From Chloroflexota bacterium (GTDB taxonomy: Bacteria; Chloroflexota; Limnocylindria; Limnocylindrales; CSP1-4), in the NCBI GenBank assembly GCA_021802825.1, contig JAJZRG010000009.1, positions 10,010 to 74,009 of the forward strand: 64,000 nucleotides of DNA. The letters are read 5' to 3'. The position numbers and the translations under genes are program-made. Shown piece by piece: positions 1 to 14,294 of the stretch; within the stretch, counting starts at the first letter, position 1, and each line of letters starts with the position of its first letter. Below the pieces are notes generated by a model, which was not told where the DNA came from, made no database searches, and was given only the letters and a program-made list of their open reading frames with translations.

Positions 1-253
1 GGTGGGCCGCGACGTCGGGCAGGCCGTTCTGGAGCACGTAGAGCAGGCGCCCGCCGGCGAGCGCCGAGGCGCCGACCCAGATCGCGGCGTCCTCGACGAG
101 GCCCGTGGCGAGGTGCGCCCGGCGGGCCCCCGCGAGCGCGATCGCGACCGCGACGGCGATGGCGAGGGCGACGAACAGGCCGTACCAGCGGATCTCGACC
201 CCGCCGAGGGAGAAGGCGACGGGGTCGAGCCCGATGGGGAGGAGGAGGGGCAT
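1..253 (-). CDS. lgt: Prolipoprotein diacylglyceryl transferase (Lgt), N-terminal part only; gene runs off the left edge
   Basis: Not in ORF track (no stop in window). Reverse translation from ATG 253..251 gives MPLLLPIGLDPVAFSLGGVEIRWYGLFVALAIAV...GGRLLYVLQNGLPDVAAH. This is colinear with the complete Lgt at 60100..60915 (IDPVAFRVAGLDIRWYGL...GGRLLYMIQNGLPDLAADPAH). ATGA overlap with the upstream HMA gene stop. Confidence 0.8.
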   Translation of the reverse strand, partial: MPLLLPIGLDPVAFSLGGVEIRWYGLFVALAIAVAVAIALAGARRAHLATGLVEDAAIWVGASALAGGRLLYVLQNGLPDVAAH

Positions 254-549
254 CAGGGGCGGCCGAGGAGGCGGTCGACGAGGCCGCGGTCCGACCCCGG
301 CGGGAGCACCTCGGCCGCGTCGAGGTCCGCCTCGTAGCCGGCTGCGGCGACCGCCGCCGCGAGCGCCGCGTCGGGGACGACCGACGGCTCGCGGCGGACG
401 GTCGCGGTCTCGTGCCGCAGGTCCACGGACACCTTCGCGACCCCGGGCACCTTGCCGACCGCGCGCACGATCCGGTTGACGCAGGAGCCGCACGTCATCC
501 CGCGGACCGGGAAGCGGACGACCTCGAGCCCGCCGGGCTGCGCGGTCAC
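253..549 (-). CDS. Heavy-metal-associated (HMA) copper chaperone, CopZ-like
   Basis: C-terminal part of ORF 253..1194. GTG at 549 overlaps the CcdA-like stop (GTGA). Sequence VTAQPGGLEVVRFPVRGMTCGSCVNRIVRAVGKVPGVAKVSVDL carries the canonical GMTCxxC motif and HMA fold pattern. Confidence 0.85.
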   Translation of the reverse strand: MTAQPGGLEVVRFPVRGMTCGSCVNRIVRAVGKVPGVAKVSVDLRHETATVRREPSVVPDAALAAAVAAAGYEADLDAAEVLPPGSDRGLVDRLLGRP

Positions 550-1400
550 ATCGACACCATCAGGCCGAAGCTCATGGCGATGATCGCGAGCGCGATGCCG
601 GCCTTGACCCACGGCGAGTTCGCGCGGTTCCACCGACCGATCTGGCCCAGGACCCGCCGGTTGCTGACAGCGAGGAGCATCGCGACCAGCGGCACGATGA
701 ACGCGATGTTGTAGAGCGCGAGCAGGGCGTAGCCGGTGGCGCCGCCGCCCGATGCGTGGAGCACCGCGGTGATCTGGAGGTACATCGCACCGGAGCACGG
801 GACGGTGCAGATCCCGACCAGGACGCCCGCGATGAGCATCCCGGCGAGCCCGCCACGCTCCATCGCCTTGCGCATCCTCCCGTGCGTGCCCGACGGCGCC
901 ATCATCGAAGGGCCCACGCCCGGCAGGAACACGTCCTTGAGCATCCAGAGGGCCATGCCGAGGGCGATGACCGACGCGACGCGGGCGACGAGGTGGTCTC
1001 GGCCCATCCAGCCCAGGAAGGTCAGCAGGCCGAGGCCGATGATGAAGTACGTCACGAACACCGCGCCCACATACAGCGAGCCCGCGCCGAGCAGGCGCCG
1101 CCGGGCCTCGGCCGTCGGCGAGCCGCTCGCGGTCACCGCGTTGACGAGCGTGAGCGTGAAGGTCGCGAACAGGACGAGGAGCGCGAAGGCGCACGGGTTG
1201 AAGCCGTCGAGGAACCCGGCGGCGAGGACCGCCGGGATCGTCAGGCCGCCGAACGCGCCGGCCTCGAAGGGGACCGCGAGTACGTAGGCCGACGCCGTGA
1301 CGCCGACGACCGCGAGCATGGCGGCGAGGACGACCGCCGGCAGGGGCCAGCCCGCCACGAGGCGGTGCGAAGGGAGGGGCGCGGCGGGCTGGGCGGTCAT
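546..1400 (-). CDS. CcdA/DsbD-family transmembrane thiol-disulfide protein (copy 1)
   Basis: ORF 546..1643, internal ATG at 1400 (MTAQPAAPL), ATGA overlap with the upstream cupredoxin stop. Polytopic membrane protein with FLDGFNPCAF and GICTVPCSG motifs typical of the DsbD_2/CcdA transmembrane family. Paralog of 5374..6225. Confidence 0.8.
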   Translation of the reverse strand: MTAQPAAPLPSHRLVAGWPLPAVVLAAMLAVVGVTASAYVLAVPFEAGAFGGLTIPAVLAAGFLDGFNPCAFALLVLFATFTLTLVNAVTASGSPTAEARRRLLGAGSLYVGAVFVTYFIIGLGLLTFLGWMGRDHLVARVASVIALGMALWMLKDVFLPGVGPSMMAPSGTHGRMRKAMERGGLAGMLIAGVLVGICTVPCSGAMYLQITAVLHASGGGATGYALLALYNIAFIVPLVAMLLAVSNRRVLGQIGRWNRANSPWVKAGIALAIIAMSFGLMVSM

Positions 1401-1969
1401 CCGACTGCCGCTCCGACCGACGCGGAGGCCGGCTTGACGACGATCTTGCCGTGCATCTGGGGGGCGTCCTTGCCGCCGCAGCAGCTCTCGCACCACACGT
1501 CGTACGTTCCCGGCTTGTTCGGAACGGTCCAGGTGACCATCTTGGTGCTCTCGGCCGGCAGTTGCTCGTGAAGCCCGAGGTCGGGCGAGACCATCGTGTG
1601 CACGCCGCCCGTGAGGTGCGGTGCCGCGTCCTGGGTCCACCACTTGAAGGTGACGGTCTGGCCGGCGGTCACGTCGATCTCCGACGGCGTGAACCCGGCC
1701 ATGGAGCTCTGGACGTCGATGATGCCGCTTGCTGCGGCGTCCGACGGCCGCCGTAGGAAGTCGCCGAACGCCAAGTACGTCCCAACCGCCAGCACCGCGA
1801 CCACGATGCCGCCGAAGGCGAGCTTGCGCAGCATGTCCATTCGGGCGGCGTGCTGACGTTCGGCGACCCGCTGGCCGCGGCGCTCGACGACCGCCTGGTG
1901 CAGAGCTTCGCGCTCCTGCTCCCGCCGTTCGCGGCGGGGGGCCGGCTGCTGGTTGACGTGGTCAGTCAT
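1397..1969 (-). CDS. Membrane-anchored CuA-like cupredoxin with C-x2-CC-GG-x5-M motif (copy 1)
   Basis: ORF 1397..2173, ATG at 1969 (MTDHVNQQ). One N-terminal TM helix, then a COX2-like beta-sandwich pattern: HTMVSPDLGLHEQLPAESTKMVTWTVPNKPGTYDVWCESCCGGKDAPQMHGKIVV. Paralog of 6222..6707. Confidence 0.7.
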   Translation of the reverse strand: MTDHVNQQPAPRRERREQEREALHQAVVERRGQRVAERQHAARMDMLRKLAFGGIVVAVLAVGTYLAFGDFLRRPSDAAASGIIDVQSSMAGFTPSEIDVTAGQTVTFKWWTQDAAPHLTGGVHTMVSPDLGLHEQLPAESTKMVTWTVPNKPGTYDVWCESCCGGKDAPQMHGKIVVKPASASVGAAVG

Positions 1970-2243
1970 GGCGGGCCTCCTGGCCGTGGTGGGCATGGTG
2001 CGTGGCGCGGTGGCGCGCCGATGCGTGAGGAATGGGCGGGTCGTCGTCCAGCGCGGCCAAAGCGCGCCGGAGCTCCTCCTCGCTGATCTCGCCGCGGGCG
2101 AACCGATCGCGCACGATCTCGGCGGGATCGACGTGCGGGGCGTGTCGTGGCTCGCGGACGAGCAGCCAGACAACGAGGGTCATGACCAGCGCCCACGCGC
2201 CGATCCAAACCCAGGCGTCCGTACCCATTTGCCAGCCCGTCAT
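1962..2243 (-). CDS. SHOCT-domain small membrane protein with His-rich C-terminus
   Basis: ORF 1962..2330, ATG at 2243 (MTGWQMGTDAWVWIGAWALVMTLVVWLLV). One TM helix followed by IVRDRFARGEISEEELRRALAAL (SHOCT-like). Tail is HRATHHAHHGQEARHD. Confidence 0.65.
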   Translation of the reverse strand: MTGWQMGTDAWVWIGAWALVMTLVVWLLVREPRHAPHVDPAEIVRDRFARGEISEEELRRALAALDDDPPIPHASARHRATHHAHHGQEARHD

Positions 2244-2373
2244 GCCGAGCCTCCGTATCTCCGGTCGGTGGACCGCTGTGATCCCGAGCATTGGGCCACC
2301 GAAGCGGAAAAGCCATGGAGGGACGGGCAAGCGTTGGTCAAGAGTCGGTCAACGCGAGGCCCAGGGCAGCACT

Positions 2374-2400
2374 CTCACCCCTGTTTCACCTTGCGCTCAG
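2374..2400 (+). promoter_or_regulatory. Phased YTCA-N7 array (x3) upstream of LysM-M23 peptidase
   Basis: CTCA 2374, TTCA 2385, CTCA 2396: exact 11-bp spacing, sense to the gene starting at 2486. Confidence 0.5.
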
Positions 2401-2485
2401 GAGTCGGCACGAGGATCGACACGCCCGAGCCGCAGCGTCCGTTGACTGTGTCCGGCGGTGGGCGTCGAACACAGCGAGGTCGTAG

Positions 2486-3493
2486 ATGCGACAGGCACAC
2501 CCCGTGCGCGCCCGCGCGCGCCGACGACAACTGGCCGCGGCCGCGCTCCTCGGGGCTGTCGGGGCGATCTGGTCGCTGAGCGCGGTGGCCGGACGGGCGC
2601 CGTCATCGAGTAGCGCGCTCCCCCCGGAGGCGTTCCGACAGGTCGTCGCGGCGCCACGGATGGACGTGGAGGCAACGCCGTCGGGCCAGGATGCGCCGAC
2701 GTCGGCGGCTCCCTCGTTGGCCCTTGGTGTTCTGGGCATCCCGACCGTCCCGACAGTCGACGCCGTCCCCGTCGTCCCCACGGTCGGCTCAGCAGGCGCG
2801 ACCTCCGACCCCACTGCCATTCCGTCCGCCGCGCCGGCGCTTGGGCAGCCGACGGCGACGCCAACGCCCGTGGCCCCAGCCGACGCGCCGCCCCCGGGAC
2901 CCACGCACGTCGTACGCCCGGGCGACAGCCTGTGGACAATCGCGGTCATGCACGGCGTGCCCCTCGCCACCGTGGTCCGGTGGAACCCCGCGGTGGATCC
3001 GGCCAGCGTGAGGATCGGATCGAAGGTCCTCGTGCCGGGCGGCCGCACCGCCAAGGCCGCAACCGCCAGGCCCAAGGCAGCCCCCAAGCCCGCGCCCAAG
3101 CGGGTCCCGAAGCCAGTCGTGGTTCCGAGGGCGTCGGGCCACCAGTGGCCGCTCGCTGTCCGGGGCGAGGTCACCACGACCTTCTCGAGCCGCCATCCCG
3201 GCATCGACATCGCCTCTCCGGCCGGCACCCCCATCCGCGCGGTCGCGGCCGGCGTCGTCATCTGGGCCGGCTGGAAGGACAACGGGGGCGGCTTCGTCGT
3301 CGTCCTGCGCCACCCGAACGGCATGATCTCGACCTACAACCACAGCCGCAGGGTGCTCGTGTCCGTCGGCCAGCGCGTCGGCGGCGGCCAGGAGATCGCC
3401 GAGGTCGGCACGACCGGCAATTCGACGGGGCCGCACCTGGACGTGCGGATCGAGATGGGCGGCCGGTTCGTCAACCCCCTCCTGCTCTTCTGA
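2486..3493 (+). CDS. Secreted LysM-domain M23 family metallopeptidase
   Basis: Signal/TM segment, LysM (HVVRPGDSLWTIAVMHGVPLATVVRWNP...IGSKVLVPG). M23 motifs HPGIDIASPAGTPIRAVAAGVV and GNSTGPHLDVRI. AGGT SD upstream of ATG 2486. Confidence 0.9.
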   Translation: MRQAHPVRARARRRQLAAAALLGAVGAIWSLSAVAGRAPSSSSALPPEAFRQVVAAPRMDVEATPSGQDAPTSAAPSLALGVLGIPTVPTVDAVPVVPTVGSAGATSDPTAIPSAAPALGQPTATPTPVAPADAPPPGPTHVVRPGDSLWTIAVMHGVPLATVVRWNPAVDPASVRIGSKVLVPGGRTAKAATARPKAAPKPAPKRVPKPVVVPRASGHQWPLAVRGEVTTTFSSRHPGIDIASPAGTPIRAVAAGVVIWAGWKDNGGGFVVVLRHPNGMISTYNHSRRVLVSVGQRVGGGQEIAEVGTTGNSTGPHLDVRIEMGGRFVNPLLLF

Positions 3494-3538
3494 TCGTTAG
3501 GCCCGGTAGCTCTGCGTCCAAACCGTGGAGGGATCCCG

Positions 3539-4015
3539 ATGTCACTGGCGTCGTGGCTGCTCTGGGGGCACCTGCTAGCGACGGTCGTGCTGGTCGGCTA
3601 CTACGTGCTGCTCGCGGCCGTCGTGATCCCGGCCGTCACGCGCGCGGCCGGCGATCGCCGGGCTGTCGTCCTCCCGGTCGGCCAGCTGCTGGCGGCCATC
3701 GAGCGACGCGCGCTGCCGCTCCTGCTCGCGTCGGTCGGCGTCTTCCTCGCCACCGGCATCGGCCTCCAGACATCGGACCCGCAGTACCAGGGGCTGGGCC
3801 AGGTGCGGGGCGCCTGGGCGGGTCTGCTCCTGGTCAAGCACCTCGTGGTGGTCGGGATGCTCGCCGTCGGCTCGGTGCTCGACGGCTTCCTGGTCCGGGC
3901 GGGGCGAGAGGATTCCCCGTCAGCGCCGGGCGCAAGCCTCGTCTGGACCGTCCGCGTTCAGGCTGGGCTCGGGGTGCTCGTGCTCCTCATCACGGCGGCG
4001 GCGCAGGGCGCGTGA
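3539..4015 (+). CDS. CopD-like integral membrane protein
   Basis: 158 aa, 4 TM helices, GGAGGG SD. Pattern resembles the C-terminal copper-resistance-D (CopD) domain. Assignment by topology and context only. Confidence 0.5.
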   Translation: MSLASWLLWGHLLATVVLVGYYVLLAAVVIPAVTRAAGDRRAVVLPVGQLLAAIERRALPLLLASVGVFLATGIGLQTSDPQYQGLGQVRGAWAGLLLVKHLVVVGMLAVGSVLDGFLVRAGREDSPSAPGASLVWTVRVQAGLGVLVLLITAAAQGA

Positions 4016-5345
4016 CGCCTGGATCCGCGCGGACGAGCGGCGCCTTGCCGGCGGCCGTGCGCGGGATCGCGGGGACCTCGCTCAATGTCACGGGGGGCGC
4101 AACTGCCCCGACTGCCTCGATGGCCGAACGGATCTCCGTCACCACGGCCGCGCCGTCGAAGCCCGCGCCCGGTCCCGCCACCAGCAGCCGCAGCACGTCA
4201 CCCTCCTGGACGACCTGCCACTCACCGGCGGGCACGCGGTCGAGGGCGTCGTGGAAGACGAGCGGGTGGACGGCGACCAGCCCCCCGTTGCGCCCGGGCA
4301 GCTGAAGGATGTCCTCCTGGCGGCCCTGGATCGCGTCGAGCAGCGCATAGGGGCGGCCGCACGGGCATCGGCGGGACGCCAGCCGGACGCTGTCGCTCAT
4401 CTCATAGCGGATCAGCGGTTGGGTTCGGCTGAACAGCACCGTGACCAGGATCTTGGCCCCGAAGGTGCCGACGGAGACCGGGCGGTTCGCCTCGTCGACG
4501 ACCTCGGTGATCACGAGGTCCTCGAACAGGTGGAGGCCGTCGTGCTGCTCGCATTCGGACGCGATGCCCGCGGGCTCGGTGGCCGCGTACACGTTGAACG
4601 GCTGCCGGCCCCAGGCCTGCGCGACGATGCGGCGCGTGTCATCCGTGAGCACCTCGGACGCGGACAGCGCCGCGGTCGGCGAGATGCGCAGCCGGCCCGC
4701 CAGCTGCTCCTCGGCGAGCAGGCGGTGCATTGAGGCGTAGCCGATCAGCGACTGGGGCTGGAAGGCGTTGAGCCGCGCCACAATGTCCGCGACCGGGTCG
4801 GTGGCGTTGACCCGGAGCGTGCGCACGAGCGGGTTCGCGACGCTCGCACCGACGCGCGCCGACTGGTGCCAGGCCGTCGTCGTGCTCACGACCGCGAGCC
4901 GCATCCGGTGCGTCGGCGAGGCCGCGACGCCGGCCCACTCCTGCGCGCGGTTGTACGAGCCGACCACCGCCGCCCACTCGGCGGCGTCAGAGAGGAAGAC
5001 GCCCCGCACCCCGGTCGTGCCCGACGTCGACACGACGCGGTAGCGGCCGCGGAACCGGGCATCGTCGGCCATGGAGCGCAGATGGGCCTCCACGTCGGCA
5101 AGCCGGACCCCGCGGTCGGTGACGACCTCGTCGAAGCTGGCCGCGAGCTCGGCCTTGGTCACCGTGGGCAGCGCCTCGAGCGGCGCCTCCTCGAGCCCGG
5201 CGTGGAGCCGGCGGTAGAACGGCGACCGCGCGACGGCGAACCGGCGGAGCTCGCGCAGGGCCCGCTCGCGGTGCGCGTCCAGCTCCGTCCGGTCCCACTG
5301 GTCCCGCCGCCGCAACCCGCCGCGCGTGGCGAGGACGCGACCCAT
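3990..5345 (-). CDS. Adenylate-forming enzyme, phenylacetate-CoA ligase / F390 synthetase-like
   Basis: ORF 3990..5417, ATG 5345 (MGRVLATRGG). Has the STSGTTG P-loop-like AMP-binding motif (VVSTSGTTGVRGVF). Overall layout matches the PaaK family. Confidence 0.65.
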   Translation of the reverse strand: MGRVLATRGGLRRRDQWDRTELDAHRERALRELRRFAVARSPFYRRLHAGLEEAPLEALPTVTKAELAASFDEVVTDRGVRLADVEAHLRSMADDARFRGRYRVVSTSGTTGVRGVFLSDAAEWAAVVGSYNRAQEWAGVAASPTHRMRLAVVSTTTAWHQSARVGASVANPLVRTLRVNATDPVADIVARLNAFQPQSLIGYASMHRLLAEEQLAGRLRISPTAALSASEVLTDDTRRIVAQAWGRQPFNVYAATEPAGIASECEQHDGLHLFEDLVITEVVDEANRPVSVGTFGAKILVTVLFSRTQPLIRYEMSDSVRLASRRCPCGRPYALLDAIQGRQEDILQLPGRNGGLVAVHPLVFHDALDRVPAGEWQVVQEGDVLRLLVAGPGAGFDGAAVVTEIRSAIEAVGAVAPPVTLSEVPAIPRTAAGKAPLVRADPGVTRPAPPP

Positions 5346-5373
5346 GAGCGCCAAGTCCACGACGACCTCCGGA

Positions 5374-6225
5374 TCAGACTGTGAGGAGGATCGCAAACCC
5401 CATGACGAGGACGACACCCGCCAGCATGAGCTTCGTGCCGCCGGCGTGCGCGAGGTGCCAGCGGTTGATCGTGCGGATGACCCCCGGGCGGCTGGCCAGC
5501 ACCAGGAGCAGGACCAGCGGCGTGATGTAGGCGACGTTGTAGAGGATCAGCCCGCCGAGCCCGGCCGCCACGCTGCCGCCTGCCCCGAGGAGCGCCACGA
5601 CGCCGAGGTACACCGCGCCGCTGCACGGGACCGTGCACAGGCCGATGAGCACGCCTCCACCGAGCAGGGCGAGGGGGGAACTCGTGCGCACCCAAGAGCG
5701 CATCCTGCTGTGGAGGGCGTCCGGCGCGGCGAGCTGCAGCCGGGCGTCAGGCAGCAGGGCGTCGCGCAGCATCCAGATGCCCATCCCGATGGCGATCAGG
5801 GCGGCGATGCGGCTCGGCAGGTGGCTCGACCCGAAGTTGGTCGCCGTGACGATGGCCGAGAGCATGCCCAGACCGAGGAGGAAGTAGGTGACCAGGACGC
5901 CAGCCACGAACAGCGACCCCAGGCCGAGCACGCGCCTTGACGCCGCCGCTGTCGCCTGCCCGTTGCCCGACGCGACGGACTCGCGTGCCGCCAGGCCGAG
6001 CGCGAAGGTGGCGAACAGGATCAGGACGCCGAAGGCGCAGGGGTTGAAGCCGTCGAGGAATCCCGCGCCGAGGATGACCGGGACAGTCAAGCCCGGCAGG
6101 CCGTCATGGGCGGCCATCGAGGTCGCCGGCTGGGCCAGCGCAACCGCCGCCGCCGCCACCGCCAGCAGGACGCCAACCCCCGCGACTGCGGCGCCCCGCC
6201 GCGGGATTGCCGCGGCACGCGTCAT
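5374..6225 (-). CDS. CcdA/DsbD-family transmembrane thiol-disulfide protein (copy 2)
   Basis: ORF 5374..6993, internal ATG 6225 (MTRAAAIP), ATGA overlap with the cupredoxin stop at 6222. Same FLDGFNPCAF and GLCTVPCSG motifs and colinear with 546..1400. Confidence 0.8.
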   Translation of the reverse strand: MTRAAAIPRRGAAVAGVGVLLAVAAAAVALAQPATSMAAHDGLPGLTVPVILGAGFLDGFNPCAFGVLILFATFALGLAARESVASGNGQATAAASRRVLGLGSLFVAGVLVTYFLLGLGMLSAIVTATNFGSSHLPSRIAALIAIGMGIWMLRDALLPDARLQLAAPDALHSRMRSWVRTSSPLALLGGGVLIGLCTVPCSGAVYLGVVALLGAGGSVAAGLGGLILYNVAYITPLVLLLVLASRPGVIRTINRWHLAHAGGTKLMLAGVVLVMGFAILLTV

Positions 6226-6707
6226 GCCGTCACCGTGAGCTTGCCCTGCATCGACGGGTTCGCCCGGCCGCCGCAGCAGATGCCGCAGAACCAGGTGTAG
6301 GTGCCCGGCGTCGACGGAGCGGTGAACTCGAACTCCTTGCTGCTCTCGGGCCCGACCTTCCAGTCGATCCCGAGCTCGTCGATCGCCATCTCGTGCCAGC
6401 CGCCGCCGTCGCTGTGGAAGGACGAGTCCGTCGAGGTCAGCTCGACCGAGACTGCCGAGCCTGCCTTCACGCTCATCGCGGCCGGCTGGAACCCGCCCAT
6501 GCTGGCCTGGATCTGGACGACGCCGGCCGCTGCGGGCGCGGGGGGCGCGAGGCGCGTCGCCACCAAGGCGAGTGCGGCGAGCGAGATCACGAGCGCGACA
6601 GCACCGAAGACAACCGTGCGGAGGCCGCGGTGCTTGGGAGCCTGGCGATTTCGTGCCTTCATGGGCGGGCGGGGGCGGTCGGCGGTCGGGCGGTTGGGCT
6701 TGGTCAT
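6222..6707 (-). CDS. Membrane-anchored CuA-like cupredoxin with C-x2-CC-GG-x5-M motif (copy 2)
   Basis: 161 aa. N-terminal TM helix, then HEMAIDELGIDWKVGPESSKEFEFTAPSTPGTYTWFCGICCGGRANPSMQGKLTV. Colinear with 1397..1969. Confidence 0.7.
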   Translation of the reverse strand: MTKPNRPTADRPRPPMKARNRQAPKHRGLRTVVFGAVALVISLAALALVATRLAPPAPAAAGVVQIQASMGGFQPAAMSVKAGSAVSVELTSTDSSFHSDGGGWHEMAIDELGIDWKVGPESSKEFEFTAPSTPGTYTWFCGICCGGRANPSMQGKLTVTA

Positions 6708-7069
6708 CTTGGGGCTTCCTCGGACTGGGCGAAATGGGATGGTGTCGTGGGGTTGCGGGGCGCACGGGTCCGGTGCGAGGGACTTCGGCTCCTGCGGAGG
6801 ACCGGCCCCAGCAGCTGCCGCACATCCGGGTGGATGTTCTCCGCCAGGACCTGGCGGTCGACCTCCTGCTGGACGAGGCGGACGAGCAGGGCGTCGAGCG
6901 AACCCTGTGCCGCGAGCAGCTGCTGGACGATGGCGCTGAGCGGCTGGCCTGTGCGGACCATCTCGGCCACGCCAGCGGCCTGGCCGGCGGCACGGCTCGC
7001 GTGCGCCAGCGCCGACGACGCCGCCTCGTAGCGCCGGGGCTTGCGGGAAGGCGCGGCCGGGACGTTCAT
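6704..7069 (-). CDS. CsoR/RcnR (DUF156)-like protein lacking the canonical Cys/His metal ligands
   Basis: ORF 6704..7120, ATG 7069 (MNVPAAP); ATGA overlaps at both ends. ALAHASRAAGQAAGVAEMVRTGQPLSAIVQQLLAAQGSLDALLVRLVQQEV aligns by eye to the CsoR helix pattern (ALNRLKTVRGHLDGIVRML..YCVDVMKQISAVQSSLE). No Cys or His sits at the ligand positions. Confidence 0.5.
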   Translation of the reverse strand: MNVPAAPSRKPRRYEAASSALAHASRAAGQAAGVAEMVRTGQPLSAIVQQLLAAQGSLDALLVRLVQQEVDRQVLAENIHPDVRQLLGPVLRRSRSPSHRTRAPRNPTTPSHFAQSEEAPR

Positions 7070-8190
7070 GCGGCCGTGCCGTGCGCCTGGCGCGTCGCGA
7101 GGGCGTCGGCGTCCGCCCACGCCCGCATCTGCGCGATCACATCGTCCGCCTCCACCGCGCCGTACCTTGGGTCGCCGCGGACCAGCACGATCCCGGCGAT
7201 CTCGAGGTCGCCGGCGATGTCCGCGGCGCCGTCAGCGGCCTGAGCGATGCGAAGCGTTCTGACCGGCACCATCGCGTCACTGCACCGCGCGGCCGGCCGA
7301 GCTGCCGCCGCCCGCATCTGGCGCGGGCCAATGGCGCCGACGAAGAGTCCGGCACCATCGACGACGAGGGACGCGGCTGCCCGGGCTTCCCCGGTCAAGT
7401 CTGCGATCTGCTCGTCGGCGCGCCTCACGGCATTCACGGGGTGGGCGAGCTGTGACGCCGTGTGGCTCGCGAAGAACCGCTCGACGATGTCGATGCGTCG
7501 GACCGCCTCCGCCTGTGCCCAGACGGTCGCAGCGGCCAGGATCCCCAGTGCGGCGAGCATCGGGTCGCCGATCAGAGCCGCGCCCAGGGCGAGCAGGACG
7601 GCAAGGGCGACGGCCACCGCCTTCGCCGCCCGCGCCACGTGCGCCGCGTGGTGGTCACGGTTCGAGCACCTGGCCTCGGTGATTGCCTCGACAGCCTCCC
7701 ATCCCGCGAGTCCGGGCATTGGGACCATGGTGGCGAGCAGGAGTCCGAGGTTCGCGAGCACCGCCAGCGAGCCAATCGCGTGCTGGTAGCTCCGGATGTC
7801 GGTGCCGGAGGTCGCTGCCGCGGCCGCTGCCGCGAGCGCCCCGGATACGACGGCTCCGGACGCGACGGCAACCAGTCTCCGAGCGGGCGAGGCTCCCGAC
7901 GCCAGGAGGCCCGGCCGCAGGAACGGCGCGTCGGCGGCGACGCGCCGGCCCCCGAGGATCAGGACGCGCGTAACGCGGGGCAGGATGACCGCCATTCCCA
8001 CCACGTACAGGCCCGCGATCGCGCCGAGAAGGGCCTGTCCCGCTGACCCGCTGGGGTGGGTTGGCATATAGACGGTCGCGATCAGGACGAAGGCGATCGC
8101 TCCGGGAACCAGCAGCGAGCGCGCCTGTCCTGTTGTGGCGGCCGACGGATGTCCGGGGCCGGGGCCCGTCCCGCCGCGCACGCCATTCAC
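7066..8190 (-). CDS. M50 (site-2 protease)-like membrane protein with C-terminal CBS pair; catalytic motifs absent
   Basis: ORF extends to 8253, but GTG 8190 gives a GTGA overlap with the upstream stop, as elsewhere in this operon. Multi-TM core with ANLGLLLATMVPMPGLAGW in place of the NxxPxxPLDGG motif. No HExxH. C-terminal CBS-like repeats. Confidence 0.55.
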   Translation of the reverse strand: MNGVRGGTGPGPGHPSAATTGQARSLLVPGAIAFVLIATVYMPTHPSGSAGQALLGAIAGLYVVGMAVILPRVTRVLILGGRRVAADAPFLRPGLLASGASPARRLVAVASGAVVSGALAAAAAAATSGTDIRSYQHAIGSLAVLANLGLLLATMVPMPGLAGWEAVEAITEARCSNRDHHAAHVARAAKAVAVALAVLLALGAALIGDPMLAALGILAAATVWAQAEAVRRIDIVERFFASHTASQLAHPVNAVRRADEQIADLTGEARAAASLVVDGAGLFVGAIGPRQMRAAAARPAARCSDAMVPVRTLRIAQAADGAADIAGDLEIAGIVLVRGDPRYGAVEADDVIAQMRAWADADALATRQAHGTAA

Positions 8191-8726
8191 CTCAATGTCT
8201 CGCGGAGCGTCCGGGAGGCCTGGATCGTCCTGTTGAGCCGCTCGGCCTTCCACGCCACGAGGCCGCCCGCGACGGCCAGCGCGAGGATCGTCCCGAGGAA
8301 GGTGGCCGACTCGAGCCCGGAAGTCGAGCGTCCGACGGCGGCCTGGGCGGCGCTCGTCGCCCCGCCATCCCCCGCGGCGGTGCCTGCGATCTGCAGCGGG
8401 ACGGTCAGCGTCTCATCACCGACGGCGCGGAGTTCAAAGGTCCCGTTCGGGACATGGCCGGGGATGTGGAGCCCTTTGCTGAACGTCCCGGTGGCGTCGG
8501 TCTTGACGACCCCGAAGTCGATCACCATGCCGTCCCCGGCGAGCACGAGGTCGCGGTCGCTGTCGGGCGGCAGACCGGTGCCGGCGAAGACGACGGTTGC
8601 GCCGGCGTTGATTGACGCGGGTTCGGCCTGGACAGATGCCTGGCCGCTCCCGGTGTACCCGGTGACGATGCCGAGGGGGATCACGAGGGCGGCCAGCGCG
8701 CCCGCGACAATTACGGCGCGGTGCAT
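8187..8726 (-). CDS. Secreted, C-terminally anchored Ig-like beta-sandwich protein (copy 1)
   Basis: ORF extends to 8810, but third-position GC drops upstream of ATG 8726 (MHRAVIVAGALAAL), which has a GGAG SD 8 nt upstream. Signal peptide, beta-rich domain (TDATGTFSKGLHIPGHVPNGTFELRAVGDETLT), C-terminal TM helix. Paralog of 35054..35563. Confidence 0.6.
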   Translation of the reverse strand: MHRAVIVAGALAALVIPLGIVTGYTGSGQASVQAEPASINAGATVVFAGTGLPPDSDRDLVLAGDGMVIDFGVVKTDATGTFSKGLHIPGHVPNGTFELRAVGDETLTVPLQIAGTAAGDGGATSAAQAAVGRSTSGLESATFLGTILALAVAGGLVAWKAERLNRTIQASRTLRETLR

Positions 8727-8886
8727 CAGCGCTGCTCCACTCCGCGAGGATCGCCCGCGAGAGACCGCACGAACCCCCGGCGCGTTGCCTGCGGCTACGG
8801 GGCTGGCCATATCTGCCGTCTCCTGTTGCGATGCCCGGCCCTCATTGGCCCATGCCGGAGTTCACCGCTCGGGGCTGAATCCCTGA

Positions 8887-8912
8887 TGAGCGCGGTCTGA
8901 GCGATCCATGAG
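8887..8912 (-). promoter_or_regulatory. Phased YTCA-N7 array (x3) upstream of the Ig-like/M50-like/CsoR-like/cupredoxin operon
   Basis: Top-strand TGAG at 8887, 8898 and 8909 (CTCA on the coding strand of the minus-strand operon). Confidence 0.5.
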
Positions 8913-8959
8913 GAAGTGGCGGCCCGGTCGCCAAGGGCGTCGCGGGCGGGGAATAGTCA

Positions 8960-8995
8960 GCGGGCGGGATCCACACCGAGGCGGATCCCGCCCGC
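8960..8995 (-). terminator. Strong GC hairpin (13-bp perfect stem), candidate terminator or structured RNA
   Basis: GCGGGCGGGATCC-(10 nt)-GGATCCCGCCCGC, in the 470-nt gap between the Lit-like gene and the next operon. Confidence 0.35.
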
Positions 8996-9147
8996 TTGGC
9001 GGCCCATCGCAGGAGCCGCGTGGACGGCGGCCCGGGGGGAGGCCGGGCACGTCCGGGTCTACAGGCCCCGGCCGCCCAACGTGACGACTGCTCAGCGGAC
9101 CTGACGCCCTGGGGGGGAAGGGCTGTCGTGAGCGTCGGCGCGCACGC

Positions 9148-9173
9148 TGAGCGCAGCATGAGTCCATGCTGAG
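9148..9173 (-). promoter_or_regulatory. Phased YTCA-N7 array (x3) with no obvious downstream ORF
   Basis: Top-strand TGAG at 9148, 9159 and 9170. About 150 nt downstream (minus sense) lies the 13-bp-stem hairpin 8960..8995. Confidence 0.4.
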
Positions 9174-9195
9174 ACTTGCGGCCCTCGACGCTCCC

Positions 9196-9879
9196 TCAGT
9201 CGGGATGGCCCTCGATTCTCGAAGCGATGTACCGGGCGCCGGTCCACACTGCGAGCGACATCGAGACGCCCACGATGAAGACCGTCGTGGCCGCGTCCAT
9301 CCAGAACGCGGTCGGGAAGAGCTGGGTCAGGCGCTCCGACCGCGAGTCGAACAGGTAGTTGCCCCCGGGGAAGAAGATCTCGTGGAAGGCGAGCCACGCC
9401 GCGTCGAAGAAGGCAGCGAAGAGGATGCCGACACTCGTGCCGACGACCGCCATCGCGAGCGCCGCCCGCCCGACAGCTCGCCACCAGGAGCCCTCGCCCC
9501 GGCACCGGATACCCAGCGTGACGAGGGCGAGGGCTGCGAGCGCGACGATCAGATCGAACGCCCGCAGCACCCCGAACACGTCGCGCATGTGCCCGCGCTC
9601 GGCGTCATCGAGGACCGGCCTGCCTTGATCGGTGACGGCGAAGTCGGGCGGCCCGAGCGTCACGTCGCCGATCAGGGACCCGGTGATCCGGGCGACGTCG
9701 GCGTCCGAGTAGCCGGTCAGGGCCGCCACGCCCGCCCGCTGCTGGGCCGGGAAGACCCACCACGGGTTGAACAGCAGCGCGAGGCTGGCGCCCGCGATCA
9801 CGATCGGCGTGGCCACTGCCGCCAGCCGGGCGGACCGGTGGGTCGCGACCTGGCGCGACTTCGCATCGAGGTTCCTCAT
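9196..9879 (-). CDS. DUF1461 / TIGR01906 integral membrane protein (Lit, lipoprotein intramolecular transacylase-like)
   Basis: 227 aa, 4-5 TM helices. Signature FHEIFFPGGNYLFDSRSERLTQLFPTAFW matches my recollection of the DUF1461 core (FHxxFFxxxxWxF...LFP..FW). Confidence 0.65.
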   Translation of the reverse strand: MRNLDAKSRQVATHRSARLAAVATPIVIAGASLALLFNPWWVFPAQQRAGVAALTGYSDADVARITGSLIGDVTLGPPDFAVTDQGRPVLDDAERGHMRDVFGVLRAFDLIVALAALALVTLGIRCRGEGSWWRAVGRAALAMAVVGTSVGILFAAFFDAAWLAFHEIFFPGGNYLFDSRSERLTQLFPTAFWMDAATTVFIVGVSMSLAVWTGARYIASRIEGHPD

Positions 9880-10256: not shown

Positions 10257-11450
10257 TCACGCGGCGGCCGGCCCGCGATCCGCACGCCGCCACGAGAACC
10301 GTCGCGACTCGGCGCGGAGCCTGAGCAGCCCCTGGCGTACGACGGCGTAGAGGACCACTGAGCCGACGAAGACCAGGCCGGTGCCCTGGGCGACCCGCCC
10401 CAGCACGAGGGCCGAGGTGAGGATGGACAGCGTCACCCCGACGGCCGACTCGATGAGTTGGGCGGGGATTCGCCGCGCGCCGACCCGCCGATCGGATGAC
10501 CAGATGCCAGGGCCTGTCGTGATGCGGCCGGCACAGCATCCGGTAAGGAAGCAGCCAACCCGCCCGACGGCGACCGCTAGGAAGATCGTCGGCGCGATCG
10601 CGTCGAGGTACCCGCCAGTCGGGACGCCGAGGAGCAGGCCCGTGACGACGGCCACGACCGGGGCGGACACGAGGAACCCGTCGACCGACCAGCCCTCGCG
10701 CAGCGTCGCGCGGCTCGGGCCCTTCAGGACCATGTACCAGGTCTTCGCGCCCGCGACGCCGATGATCATCGCCAGCACTGAGGCGAGGATGGCCGGGCCG
10801 ACGGACACGCCGTGGTGCGTGAGGAACAGCGGCTGCGCGGCGACGGCCCCCAGCAGCGCGATGGTTGCGGCGGCGAGGAAACTGCCGGTCATGACCCCGG
10901 GCGCGGCAGCCAGCGGGGCCGTGAGCGCCCAGCGCGTCTTGGCGGGGCCAGCCACCCCGACCATCGCCCAGCGGCGCCAAGACCATCCGACCGCCGACAG
11001 CGCAGTCGGATTGGCGGCGCGCGCCCGCTCGGGGCCGATGACCTCGGCGGTGACATCCCATTCGCCGGATGCGATGCCGTAGACCCACGTCGTCGTCGAC
11101 ATCGGGTCGCTGCCCGGCACGACTCCCACCACCGTTTCGGTGGTGGAGAACGCGTCTTCGGGGGTTGGCGCGCCGACGACGCCGCGTCGGCGGCCTGTGA
11201 GCCGGATCGTGGCCGTGTACGGCGGCGCGCCCCCGGGACCGGGGTCGAACCTGTGGGACACGACGAGCGCCTGCGGCTCGGCCTCGGCGGCAATGGGCAC
11301 GGCGCTGGGGCTGGTGGGCGCGGCGTCAGGGGCCGGGGACGCCGGAGCCAATTCCGGGCTCGCGACGCGAGGCCGCGCGGAATTGGCAGTCGCGACGGAC
11401 CGCGCCGGCGTTGCGTGTGAGCCCCGCTGCGGACGCCGCTTGGAGCTCAC
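10257..11450 (-). CDS. Lgt-family membrane protein with about 170-aa N-terminal extension (copy 1)
   Basis: 397 aa. The C-terminal half carries GRVGCFLTGCCAGRITTGPGIWSSDRRVGARRIPAQLIES, resembling the actinobacterial Lgt core (GRIGCF..GC..G....P.QL.E). The N-terminal soluble domain is unique. Close paralog of 58528..59703. Confidence 0.7.
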   Translation of the reverse strand: MSSKRRPQRGSHATPARSVATANSARPRVASPELAPASPAPDAAPTSPSAVPIAAEAEPQALVVSHRFDPGPGGAPPYTATIRLTGRRRGVVGAPTPEDAFSTTETVVGVVPGSDPMSTTTWVYGIASGEWDVTAEVIGPERARAANPTALSAVGWSWRRWAMVGVAGPAKTRWALTAPLAAAPGVMTGSFLAAATIALLGAVAAQPLFLTHHGVSVGPAILASVLAMIIGVAGAKTWYMVLKGPSRATLREGWSVDGFLVSAPVVAVVTGLLLGVPTGGYLDAIAPTIFLAVAVGRVGCFLTGCCAGRITTGPGIWSSDRRVGARRIPAQLIESAVGVTLSILTSALVLGRVAQGTGLVFVGSVVLYAVVRQGLLRLRAESRRFSWRRADRGPAAA

Positions 11451-11483: not shown

Positions 11484-11714
11484 CTACCCATGGTGGGCGT
11501 GGCCGGCGCGGTCGTGGTCGGCGTGGTCGTGGGTGAGCGGTTCCGACGTGGCCCAGCGATCCGGGTCCTGGCGGAAGGTCGCCGCACAGGCGGGCTCGCA
11601 GAACCAGTACGTGGTTCCTCCGTGAACGACGGATGCGGATCCTCCCCGCGCAACCTTCATCCCGCAGACGGGGTCGGTTGCGAGGTGGTCCTGGCGATGG
11701 TCGTGTGCGTGCAT
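11484..11714 (-). CDS. YHS-domain metal-binding protein with His-rich termini
   Basis: MHAHDHRQDHLATDPVCGMKVARGGSASVVHGGTTYWFCEPACAATF...HDHADHDRAGHAHHG. Canonical DPVCGM...Y.FC..C..F YHS pattern. Confidence 0.85.
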   Translation of the reverse strand: MHAHDHRQDHLATDPVCGMKVARGGSASVVHGGTTYWFCEPACAATFRQDPDRWATSEPLTHDHADHDRAGHAHHG

Positions 11715-11736: not shown

Positions 11737-12024
11737 TCAAGCGTCGACCGGTCGGCCGGCGTGATAGCCGGCCCGGTGGATCACCCGCATCAGCGTCCAC
11801 GCGTCCACGACGCCCGCATCGCCCCGCACATACGCGGTCTCGGTGGCAGGGTTCACGTACACGCTGCGGACGCCGGGTACGGCTGCCAGCGCGCGCTCGA
11901 GCGTCGTCGCGCCGGCCCCGCCGCATCCGAGGCCGAAAACCGGGATCCTCAACTGAAGCGAACCGTCCATGGACCCGATGGTCGCCCGCCAGGCTGAGAG
12001 CCAGGTGAGCCTCTCGTGAGACAT
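11737..12024 (-). CDS. Degenerate HMA-like domain protein (GLGCGGAG in place of GMTCxxC)
   Basis: LQLRIPVFGLGCGGAGATTLERALAAVPGVRSVYVNPATETAYVRGD follows the HMA beta-alpha-beta-beta-alpha-beta pattern with only one Cys. Alternative start ATG 11970 (MDGSLQL). Confidence 0.5.
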   Translation of the reverse strand: MSHERLTWLSAWRATIGSMDGSLQLRIPVFGLGCGGAGATTLERALAAVPGVRSVYVNPATETAYVRGDAGVVDAWTLMRVIHRAGYHAGRPVDA

Positions 12025-12062: not shown

Positions 12063-13469
12063 TCAGCTCGTTCGCGCGGGCAGGACGATCTCCGCGCGGG
12101 TGCCCCCGGCCGGTCGCGGCGACAGCGAGATCGTCGCGCCGTGGGCGTCGGCGATCCAGCGCGCGATCGCGAGGCCGAGGCCCGTCCCGGACGGGCGGAT
12201 CTGCCGAGCGCGGCGCCCGCGGTACAGGCGCTCGAACAGATGGTCAGCGTCCTCCGCGTCCACGCCGATCCCGGTGTCGTCGACGGTGACCACCGCCGCC
12301 CCGTCGCGCATCGTGAGGCGCGCCGTCACGCTGCCGCCCGGCGGGGTGTACCGGGCCGCGTTGTCCAGCACGATGCCGAACAGCTCGCGCAGGCGGTCGG
12401 CATCGCCCTCGACGACCACGGGCTCCACGGCGGCAACCGACATCCGGACGTGGGGCGCCGCCTGCCGATGCCGGCGGACGGAGTCCACGAGCAGCGCGTC
12501 GAGCTCGACGGGCTGGAAGCTGAGGCGGGCCCCGGACTCCGCCCGGGCCAACGAGAGGAGGTCGGCGATCAGGCGACCCATCCGCTCGGCCTCGTCGCGG
12601 GCGTCGTCGAGGATGGCCGACCGCTCGGCCTCGTCGAAGTCGGGCCGCGTCGCGAGGTCGAGGTTGGCGCGGATCACCGTGAGCGGGGTGCGGAGCTGGT
12701 GCGAGGCGTCGCCGAGGAACCGCTGGAGGGCCAGGTGGCTCGATTCGAGGGCGGCCAGCATCTCGTTGAAGGCCGCCGCGAGCTCGCCAACCTCGTCGGG
12801 CGTCCCAGGGCCCTCGACGCGCGCCCCGAAGTCGCCGGACAGGGCGATCGCGCGAGCCGTGTCGGTCACGTCCGCGACAGGCGCGAGGGCCCGGCGGGCC
12901 AGGAAGAGCCCCCCGATCAGGGCTAGCACCGTCACGGCCAGGCCCCCGAGCAGGAGCGCCAGGCGGACCGTGTCGAGGAGCGAGCGGAGCGGGCGCGTGC
13001 TGTCGGCCCACACGACGTATCCGAGGGTGCTCCCGTCGGGCCCGCGAACCGTCTGGACGGTGATCCGCAGCACGTCCCCGGGGACCGGATGCTCGTGGAT
13101 GGAGTGGCCGTTGTGGTCAGCCGCAGCAATGTCATCGGGGGTCACGGGCAGGGCCGGCTCCGCGGGGGGCGCCGAGTCGGCGATCTCGCGGCCCGAGGGG
13201 TCGAGCACGAGGATCCGGCCCCCGGTCGACGCGAGCTGCGAGACGAGCCTCGGCGACGGCGTCAGGCCCCCGGCAGCGTTGAGGTCCTGCGCGATCGCCC
13301 CGGCGGCGTGCTCCGCGTTCGCGACGAGGGAGGCGTCGAAGGAGGACTCGAGCTCCCGGCTCAGGACCACGTACATGCCGCCCCCGAAGGCGGCCAGCGC
13401 GGCGGCCAGCAGGCCCGTGTAGAGCAGCGCGAGCCGGACGCGGATCGTGAGCGGCGGGAGGCGGGTCAC
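12063..13469 (-). CDS. Sensor histidine kinase (HAMP-HisKA-HATPase) with His-rich extracytoplasmic loop
   Basis: GTG 13469 overlaps the RR stop (GTGA). Two TM helices flank a loop containing [17 protein letters not shown]. HisKA H-box [14 protein letters not shown]. HATPase N/G boxes ([23 protein letters not shown]). Confidence 0.9.
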
Positions 13470-14149
13470 CCGTCCTTGAGCACGTAGCCAGCGCCCCGGA
13501 CCGTGTGCAGGAGCCTAGGCTCACCGGCGGCCTCGAGCTTGCCGCGCAGGTAGCGGATGTAGACCTCGAGCACGTTGGACTCGCCCTCGAAGTCATACGA
13601 CCAGACGTGGTCCATGATCACATCGCGGGTCAGCACCTTGCGCGGGTGGCGCATGAACAGGAGCAGCAGGTTGTACTCGGTCGTGGTCAGCTCGATCCGG
13701 CGGTCGCCGCGGCGGGCCTCCCGGGCGTCCACGTCGAACTCCAGGTCGGCGAAGCGCAGGAGCTCGCCGGCCGGCGCCGACCGGCGGCGGAGCAGCGCGT
13801 GGACCCGCGCGAGCAGCTCCTCGAAGTTGAACGGCTTGACCAGGTAGTCGTCGGCGCCGGTCTCCAGGCCCTCGACGCGGTCCTTGACCTCGTCGCGGGC
13901 GGTCAGCATGAGGATGGCGACCTCGTCGCCCCCGGCGCGGAGGCGCCGCGTCACCTCGAGACCGTCGATGCCCGGCATCATGACGTCGAGGATGACCAGC
14001 TGGGGCAGATGCTCCCGGGCCTTGTCGAGGCCCTCCTCGCCCGATGCAGCCTCCACCACCCGGTACCCCTCGTAGGCGAGGCCCCGCCGGACGACGGTCC
14101 TGATCTTCGGGTCGTCGTCGACGACGAGGATGCGCGTGGGTTCGGCCAT
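13466..14149 (-). CDS. OmpR/PhoB-family response regulator
   Basis: ORF 13466..14221, ATG 14149 ([13 protein letters not shown]). Receiver domain (DVMMPGIDG, phospho-Asp context) plus winged-helix output ([30 protein letters not shown]...[11 protein letters not shown]). Confidence 0.9.
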
Positions 14150-14294
14150 GGCGTCGGGACGGCCTCCTGTGGTTCGTGCGCTTGGGCCCCGGTCCGCGCG
14201 GCGCGTCGCTGGTGCGGCCATCGTACGTTGCCGCCGCCACTGGCGACCTGCGGCCGGGCGGGTGCCGGCGCATGGGCACTGTGCCGCCCGAACC

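Follow-up and report, generated by a model that had tools for sequence, protein, structure and literature searches.

What does a gene pair that joins a predicted extracellular cupredoxin to a polytopic membrane protein do in Chloroflexota? The question is raised by contig JAJZRG010000009.1 of the Chloroflexota assembly GCA_021802825.1, of which we analyzed a stretch of 64,000 nucleotides (the window, whose positions are used throughout). Its G+C content is ~70-73%, and its nearest relatives are metagenome-assembled genomes of Chloroflexota (Limnocylindria-type). Two paralogous pairs lie on the minus strand, at 1969..546 and 6707..5374; in each, the gene for the cupredoxin and that for its membrane partner share an ATGA overlap. 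We found that this module is a conserved and uncharacterised two-gene unit with a previously undescribed metal-site motif, and we tentatively favor a role in moving Cu(I) across the membrane. An earlier reading made from the letters alone (the sequence-only reading) had reported the two pairs with the same coordinates and overlaps, and the motifs to which it drew attention, C-x2-CC-GG-x5-M, FNPCAF and CTVPCSG, are all present. The four genes are as follows.

1397 to 1969, minus strand: cupredoxin copy 1, 190 residues, with a charged N-terminus, a transmembrane anchor and a domain carrying H118, H124, C160-x2-C163-C164-GG and M172 (Cupredoxin_1, 46.9 bits, and alignment).
546 to 1400, minus strand: membrane partner copy 1, 284 residues, with an N-terminal helix, six transmembrane helices and Cys residues in GFNPCAF and ICTVPCSGA (sub-threshold matches to SfLAP, E 1.2e-3, and ArsG, E 4.7e-6).
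6222 to 6707, minus strand: cupredoxin copy 2, 161 residues, with M70, H98, H105, C141-x2-C144-C145-GG and M153 (Cupredoxin_1, 49.6 bits; AlphaFold2 mean predicted local distance difference test, pLDDT, 87).
5374 to 6225, minus strand: membrane partner copy 2, 283 residues, with C63 in DGFNPCAF and C197/C201 in CTVPCSGA (no Pfam or NCBIfam hit; AlphaFold2 pLDDT 68).

First, we asked what kind of metal site the cupredoxin carries. Both copies scored above the gathering threshold of Pfam Cupredoxin_1 (PF13473; 27 bits). The AlphaFold2 model of copy 2 contains a helix at residues 27-53 and, as had been proposed for this domain, a beta-sandwich, with nine strands of at least three residues. The top Foldseek matches of this model in the PDB were likewise cupredoxins. 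The best was an uncharacterised Cupredoxin_1 protein of Bacillus anthracis (4hcf/4hcg/4hci; E 1e-8, target TM-score 0.84-0.91), which belongs to the same Pfam family, although its identity is just 22-25%; the CuA domains of ba3 oxidase and nitrous-oxide reductase (E ~1e-7) and the Cu(I) chaperone CupA (E 1e-6) were also found. When the family profile was compared with PDB sequences, the CuA domains of the nitrous-oxide reductase NosZ gave the best match (E 9e-6). In this alignment H105 (copy 2 numbering, used hereafter) corresponds to the first CuA His, C141 and C145 to the bridging Cys pair and M153 to the Met. The second CuA His, which is located four residues after the second Cys, has no counterpart, and the position is variable (A/E/D/S, in G-G-K/R-x). 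The description of the domain as a COX2/CuA-like cupredoxin that lacks the second CuA His is thus in agreement with Pfam, Foldseek and the NosZ alignment. In addition, C144 is an extra Cys relative to CuA, located beside the second bridging Cys, and the invariant Met lies eight residues past the second Cys, whereas the axial Met of CuA lies seven past it.

Conservation of these residues was counted in 54 diverse cluster representatives. C141, C144, C145 and M153 were present in all of them and H105 in 53, so the Cys, Met and His positions singled out earlier are indeed kept in orthologs; M70 (47 of the 54), H98 (43) and D94 (41) were somewhat more variable. All 120 closest homologs contained C-x2-CC-GG. 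An exhaustive profile search of 1.84 billion representatives yielded 179 proteins at E <= 1e-10, and the motif was carried by ~70 of the clusters listed (clustered at 50% identity), while the nearest sequence neighbours outside the family possess the canonical C-x3-C-G-x-G-H-x2-M motif. As judged from these alignments, the CuA scaffold has been remodelled here to hold a His-Cys3-Met site, which in many members includes another His and another Met. Thiolate-rich ligands of this kind are better suited to holding Cu(I) tightly than to transferring electrons. Neither the PDB nor the literature searched yielded a characterised protein with this motif, in line with the earlier remark that it was not recognizable from characterised cupredoxins.

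The orientation of the domain was predicted from the flanks of the anchor helix. Among 279 family members, the mean number of Lys and Arg residues was 5.08 on the N-terminal side and 1.13 on the C-terminal side, and the N-terminal side was higher in 98.6% of them. By the positive-inside rule, these counts put the cupredoxin domain on the outer side of the membrane, held by a single-helix anchor, a prediction that supports the extracytoplasmic location assigned in the sequence-only reading.

These properties separate the family from the two best-known relatives. Compared with the CuA domains of COX2 and NosZ (2cua, 1fwx and 2iwf), the fold is the same and the first His, the C-x3-C (C141/C145) and the Met can be aligned; however, without the second His, with one Cys more and with the Met displaced by one residue, the site is no canonical CuA centre. 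Moreover, the present protein is not part of an oxidase or reductase; it stands alone, is anchored in the membrane and is always encoded beside a polytopic protein. CupA of Streptococcus pneumoniae (4f2e) is a Cu(I) chaperone with a cupredoxin fold and Cys/Met ligands that belongs to copper resistance operons (PMC7558416), and it resembles the present family in having one N-terminal anchor helix followed by a cupredoxin fold. Nevertheless, CupA carries C...C-x-M-x-M and serves CopA from the cytoplasmic side, whereas the motif of the present family is H...C-x2-CC...M, its predicted orientation is outward and its partner is CcdA-like. The family is not a CupA, because its motif differs and its predicted orientation is opposite; CupA-like C..CxMGM domains exist as separate proteins in the same organisms.

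Second, we examined the membrane partner. Neither of the window copies reached any threshold in Pfam or NCBIfam, including those of DsbD_TM and DsbD_2. Among 22 partner orthologs, weak matches were observed to DsbD_2 (4), SfLAP (3) and DsbD_TM (1), and a distant ortholog, at locus L063, was above the Pfam DsbD_TM (PF02683) threshold over nearly the whole profile (30.3 versus 27.1 bits). On the basis of these matches, a relationship to CcdA/DsbD at the superfamily level appears real but remote, and it is only marginally recognizable. The annotation of partner orthologs by NCBI and JGI is 'cytochrome c biogenesis protein CcdA'. The sequence-only reading had described the partner as a DsbD_2/CcdA-type protein; the likeness to CcdA/DsbD holds at the superfamily level, whereas the DsbD_2 label does not. 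Filing the partner under DsbD_2 (PF13386) was rejected, since the window copies have no match to it and hhalign found no significant similarity (probability 0.6%) between the partner family and the DsbD_2 domain of a fusion protein encoded at locus L061 (described below).

The AlphaFold2 model of partner copy 2 is all helical. With this low-confidence model Foldseek found no PDB match at E <= 0.001 (best E 1.8), and PDB searches with the partner profile and with a single sequence returned zero matches. With helix boundaries taken from the model, the loops of copy 2 carry 3/0/3/1/5/0/4 Lys and Arg residues, an alternating pattern from which we predict an N-in helix, present in most members, followed by six transmembrane helices (TM1 to TM6). 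The same alternation would place C63 (TM1) and C197/C201 (TM4) in the middle of the membrane, as in CcdA.

Partner proteins share ~70-77% identity across Chloroflexota. In divergent partners D58, N61, C63, P200, C201, G203, Y206, Y229 and P236 are invariant and C197 is nearly so, which gives the invariant D-G-x-N-P-C on TM1 and the C-T-V-P-C-x-G on TM4. The 6-transmembrane core, the Pro-Cys in TM1 and the P-C-x-G in TM4, both invariant, are shared with CcdA/DsbD. In contrast to those proteins, the partner has three intramembrane Cys residues instead of two, the third being one helical turn from the second (C-T-V-P-C), as well as an invariant Asp and Asn by the Cys of TM1. C197 is replaced once, by His (GLHNFPCAC, in the archaeal-looking locus L066), and such a swap would fit a metal ligand and not a disulfide-exchange Cys.

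Third, the pairing of the two genes was analyzed across genomes. A scan of GTDB with one genome per species revealed 53 loci, all of them in Chloroflexota. The partner followed the cupredoxin in 50 of the 50 species loci with sufficient downstream DNA (the remaining 3 end too early downstream, and one partner is partly N-masked), and the two genes usually overlapped. It also followed in every informative divergent locus (L063, L064, L066, L067, L069 and L070/71), so the conservation of the pairing outside this genome, on which the earlier proposal depended, is well supported. Among the divergent loci, L063 has a cupredoxin fused to an HMA-like domain and retains the partner gene, L064 has 40% G+C and carries the pair beside napAB, and L066 and L067 have neighbours from archaeal-type gene families. 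L069 (CP126311.1) is a complete 5.0-Mb genome with 44.6% G+C. As judged from these loci, the module spans Chloroflexota, low-GC bacteria and probably archaea. A protein search of a plasmid collection gave just two distant matches, from Rhizobium, with 25-26% identity, and thus no evidence of plasmid carriage. Two of the divergent settings are unusual: in L069 the pair (5001-9723) adjoins ArsP, SelD and SelU instead of copper genes, and in L064 (307-5274) it lies between napAB and PCYCGC-motif proteins.

What metal would the module serve? The genes around the two window pairs, on which the answer depends, are the following.

1 to 253, minus strand: start portion of an lgt paralog (prolipoprotein diacylglyceryl transferase), with the sequence MPLLLPIGLDPVAFSLGGVEIRWYG..., continuing beyond the window edge.
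253 to 549, minus strand: CopZ-like HMA protein, 98 residues, with GMTCGSC, no signal peptide and a predicted cytoplasmic location (Pfam HMA, 57 bits versus a cutoff of 24.8).
1962 to 2243, minus strand: small transmembrane protein, 93 residues, with a SHOCT-like domain and a His-rich tail (HHAHHGQEARHD) (SHOCT E 2.4e-4, below threshold).
2486 to 3493, plus strand: LysM-M23 peptidase (Pfam Peptidase_M23, E 1e-28, and LysM), which adjoins the pair in many loci.
3539 to 4015, plus strand: CopD-like membrane protein, 158 residues (Pfam CopD, 30.6 bits, slightly under the cutoff of 32.1; orthologs are marked CopD).
3990 to 5360, minus strand: F390-synthetase/PaaK-like adenylate-forming enzyme, 456 residues, GTG start (NCBIfam TIGR02304, E 8e-35, below its cutoff).
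6704 to 7069, minus strand: CsoR/RcnR-family protein, 121 residues, zero Cys (Pfam Trns_repr_metal, 33.5 bits versus a cutoff of 22.8).
7066 to 8181, minus strand: conserved membrane protein of no family, 371 residues, without a Pfam hit, located upstream of the pair in many loci.
8187 to 8753, minus strand: conserved protein of no family, 188 residues, with a hydrophobic stretch near either end and without a Pfam hit, near the pair in many loci.
9196 to 9879, minus strand: Lit-family gene (PF07314).
10257 to 11450, minus strand: second lgt paralog, 397 residues, with a long N-terminal extension.
11484 to 11714, minus strand: YHS protein with His-rich ends.
11737 to 12024, minus strand: degenerate HMA protein, 95 residues (GLGCGGAGATT...VYVNPATETAYV), without C-x-x-C.
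12063 to 14221: two-component system.

The first gene chain runs from the SHOCT-like gene through the cupredoxin, the membrane partner and the CopZ-like HMA gene to lgt. The SHOCT-like gene (2243..1962) shares 8 nucleotides with the start of cupredoxin copy 1, a GTGA overlap couples partner copy 1 to the HMA gene (549..253), and the HMA stop and the lgt start meet in TGATG. Copy 1 therefore continues into a CopZ-like HMA protein and lgt as the sequence-only reading had described; NCBIfam CopZ models matched the HMA protein at E 1e-16, under their cutoffs, and the L061 ortholog of this lgt encodes 268 residues (PF01790 LGT). The SHOCT protein that had been placed before copy 1 is confirmed as a gene, and orthologs do carry the SHOCT assignment, whereas the window protein itself is below threshold (21.2 versus 27 bits). 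SHOCT-like orthologs were found upstream of the cupredoxin in L001, L006, L061, L067/68 and L070/71. Two database entries, P0317 and P0322 (288 and 294 residues), present the SHOCT protein and a copy-1-type cupredoxin as one product, and these may be true fusions or gene-calling artefacts at the 8-nucleotide overlap.

In the second chain the 188-residue and 371-residue proteins are followed by the CsoR-family gene, the cupredoxin, the membrane partner and the F390-synthetase-like ligase. The CsoR-like gene (7069..6704) has ATGA overlaps with both neighbours. The ligase gene begins after a 13-nucleotide gap that follows the stop of partner copy 2 and contains GGAGG before the GTG; this start agrees with the 456-residue genes in L005-L007, and the gene is present in close relatives only. 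Between the Lit and 188-residue genes a perfect 14-nucleotide inverted repeat (AGCGGGCGGGATCC / GGATCCCGCCCGCT, with a 10-nucleotide spacer) was observed at 8959-8996, which could be a terminator or an operator; otherwise, an inverted-repeat scan of two upstream intergenic regions revealed just short or imperfect repeats.

Several of these neighbours are recurrent. A CsoR-family gene was upstream of the cupredoxin in ~24 of the 53 species loci, and small SHOCT transmembrane proteins, as well as HMA genes after copy-1-type partners (L001, L006, L056 and L061), were also often direct neighbours. In the wider island Lgt paralogs, Lit, LysM-M23, CopD-like and YHS proteins, P-type ATPases and two-component systems recurred. 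The Cu(I) ligand set of CsoR is x-C-H-C, with Cys36, His61 and Cys65 in Mycobacterium tuberculosis numbering. The window protein passes the Trns_repr_metal threshold, yet it has no Cys at all and so is ligand-less as the sequence-only reading had noted; the L004 ortholog retains a single Cys. Taken together, the CopZ-like, CsoR-like, CopD-like and YHS proteins and the extra Lgt and Lit point to copper, and it is from this context that we infer the metal. Lgt and Lit lie beside the pair in many Chloroflexota loci, and the window island has two lgt paralogs and Lit; their recurrence suggests a copper-linked remodelling of lipoproteins.

Domain fusions were also found. In six cluster representatives, including that of L063, a degenerate HMA domain and H-x-CC are fused at the cytoplasmic end of the cupredoxin. 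The degenerate HMA protein at 11737-12024 belongs to the type that other lineages have as an HMA-like domain fused to their cupredoxins. The L061 contig, which encodes the same copy-1 partner protein as the window, also encodes (5728-7824) a 698-residue fusion of HMA, a transmembrane helix, DsbD_2 and two CupA-like cupredoxin domains (C..CAMGMY); genes for a CopA-type ATPase and a YHS protein lie downstream of it, and NicO and Fur genes upstream. An earlier computational study predicted that HMA-DsbD_2 proteins (COG2836) are in the CsoR regulon of gut Firmicutes (PMC4938975). L001 (10877-12687) and L004 (9456-11320) share a further set, composed of a small hydrophobic protein, a cupredoxin (C..CGMG), Lgt and a small protein with a Gly/His-rich stretch that ends in Cys-His.

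The two window pairs are related to each other far above chance expectation, as sequence comparison indicates: the cupredoxins are 34% identical (E 2e-24) and the membrane proteins 45% (E 9e-61). These identities argue for an ancient duplication. A recent duplication was ruled out, since the copies are just 34-45% identical and the copy-1 and copy-2 subfamilies occur together in several related genomes.

How might such a pair work? The account that we favor, with somewhat less than even confidence, is a thiolate relay by which Cu(I) would cross the membrane and reach the outside Cys3 site of the cupredoxin. The pair would be a two-part envelope device for a thiol-loving metal, most likely Cu(I). 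First, a cytoplasmic donor would hold Cu(I), either the CopZ-like HMA protein, as at copy 1, or the fused HMA-like domain and H-x-CC of other lineages. Second, Cu(I) would cross the membrane by ligand exchange through the intramembrane tri-thiolate (Cys3) site of the partner. Finally, the outside His-Cys3-Met cupredoxin would receive the metal and either store it or hand it on. The direction is probably outward, because the islands are of the resistance type.

We infer transport because of three sets of observations: the coupling to HMA genes, together with cupredoxins that bear fused metal motifs on the cytoplasmic side; the partner's third Cys, its replacement by His and the intramembrane Asp and Asn; and the precedent of CupA, a Cys/Met chaperone for Cu(I) that is built on a cupredoxin fold. 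The evidence leans towards a partner that conducts metal rather than electrons. The sequence-only reading had left room for either kind of conduit, and within the reach of sequence comparison, structure prediction and comparative genomics its interpretation is supported, apart from the corrections to the DsbD_2 and SHOCT labels given above. Several observations weigh against such a relay. The only recognizable relatives of the partner, of marginal homology, are electron transporters (CcdA/DsbD_TM), its model is of low confidence without a structural match, its cytoplasmic His/Met loop is not kept in divergent members, and the C197 to His change is known from one lineage only. The C-x2-C of the cupredoxin could be a redox-active disulfide. 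In addition, the CsoR-like regulator lacks Cu(I) ligands, and the napAB and ArsP/SelD/SelU settings (L064 and L069) offer no obvious copper context. The more specific proposal that a CcdA-fold protein has been converted to an ATP-independent Cu(I) carrier, with three intramembrane thiolates, an HMA or H-x-CC donor and an extracellular CuA-derived Cys3-His-Met cupredoxin, is possible but doubtful.

The strongest alternative is that the partner is a true CcdA-type thiol-disulfide electron transporter, so that electrons from thioredoxin would keep the outside C-x2-CC reduced for copper binding; we consider this rather unlikely. There is a parallel for it in the CuA biogenesis of Bradyrhizobium, where CcdA feeds TlpA, which in turn reduces the CuA cysteines of CoxB ahead of metal insertion. 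The CcdA name given to orthologs, the distant ortholog above the DsbD_TM threshold, the weak DsbD_TM or DsbD_2 matches of others and the CcdA layout of the partner (a Cys after Pro in TM1, P-C-x-G in TM4 and the 6-transmembrane core) all agree with this alternative, and the C-x2-C that would be its target sits outside the cell, where thiols oxidise. However, CcdA does not need a third invariant intramembrane Cys, let alone one that is His in one lineage, and the invariant Asp and Asn on TM1 also speak against simple electron transfer. No thioredoxin-fold protein, and thus no thioredoxin-like substrate gene, was found in the conserved neighbourhood of the pair, and the window copies are under every DsbD family threshold. 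Furthermore, the coupling to an HMA chaperone and the cytoplasmic HMA/H-x-CC fusions would have no role in a pure electron relay. A Cu(I) relay and a redox function are not mutually exclusive.

A different possibility is that the module works inward: the outside cupredoxin would capture copper, possibly reducing Cu(II), and feed Cu(I) through the partner to CopZ/HMA and then to needy enzymes or export ATPases. Its anatomy would be identical to that of an outward Cu(I) relay, and nothing in it sets the direction. Reduction of Cu(II) by CupA occurs in vitro (PMC7558416), DsbD-family genes are induced by copper limitation in an archaeon (PMC7785015), and the CopD-like genes nearby are linked to import in CopCD systems. 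On the other hand, the neighbours are those of a resistance island (export ATPases, CsoR-family, YHS and two-component systems), and import of Cu(I) under copper stress would be harmful. Uptake or reductive capture is thus quite improbable.

There is likewise only a slim chance that the substrate is another thiol-loving species, such as Hg(II), Ag(I), Cd(II), As(III) or a selenium species. Three-thiolate sites are typical for As(III) and Hg(II), and HMA domains serve Mer and Zn/Cd systems too. Moreover, partner copy 1 weakly matches the arsenical permease family ArsG, below cutoff (E 4.7e-6), the L069 pair lies beside ArsP, SelD and SelU, and a PCYCGC protein adjoins the pair in L064. However, the majority of contexts are of the copper type, the cupredoxin retains the His and Met ligands of copper sites, and no mer or ars operon genes were found in the window region or the Chloroflexota loci. 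Finally, a mitoNEET-like 3Cys-1His [2Fe-2S] site was set aside because the domain is predicted to be extracellular, the CuA scaffold is kept and the contexts are those of copper.

In our literature search we found no paper describing a two-gene module of a cupredoxin and a CcdA-like protein. At present, the passage of copper through the cytoplasmic membrane is attributed chiefly to P1B ATPases with their chaperones. None of CcdA, DsbD and ScsB is mentioned in a review of copper homeostasis in bacteria from 2020. The present results offer a testable function for genes that are annotated 'cytochrome c oxidase subunit II', 'plastocyanin' or 'cytochrome c biogenesis protein CcdA'. Should the module supply electrons, it would be a dedicated system for the reduction of a metal site outside the cell. 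Should it instead move Cu(I), it would represent a new type of copper site as well as a third copper route through the cytoplasmic membrane, in addition to P-type ATPases and CopD-type proteins, and a demonstration that a CcdA-fold protein transports Cu(I) would sharply raise the importance of the finding.

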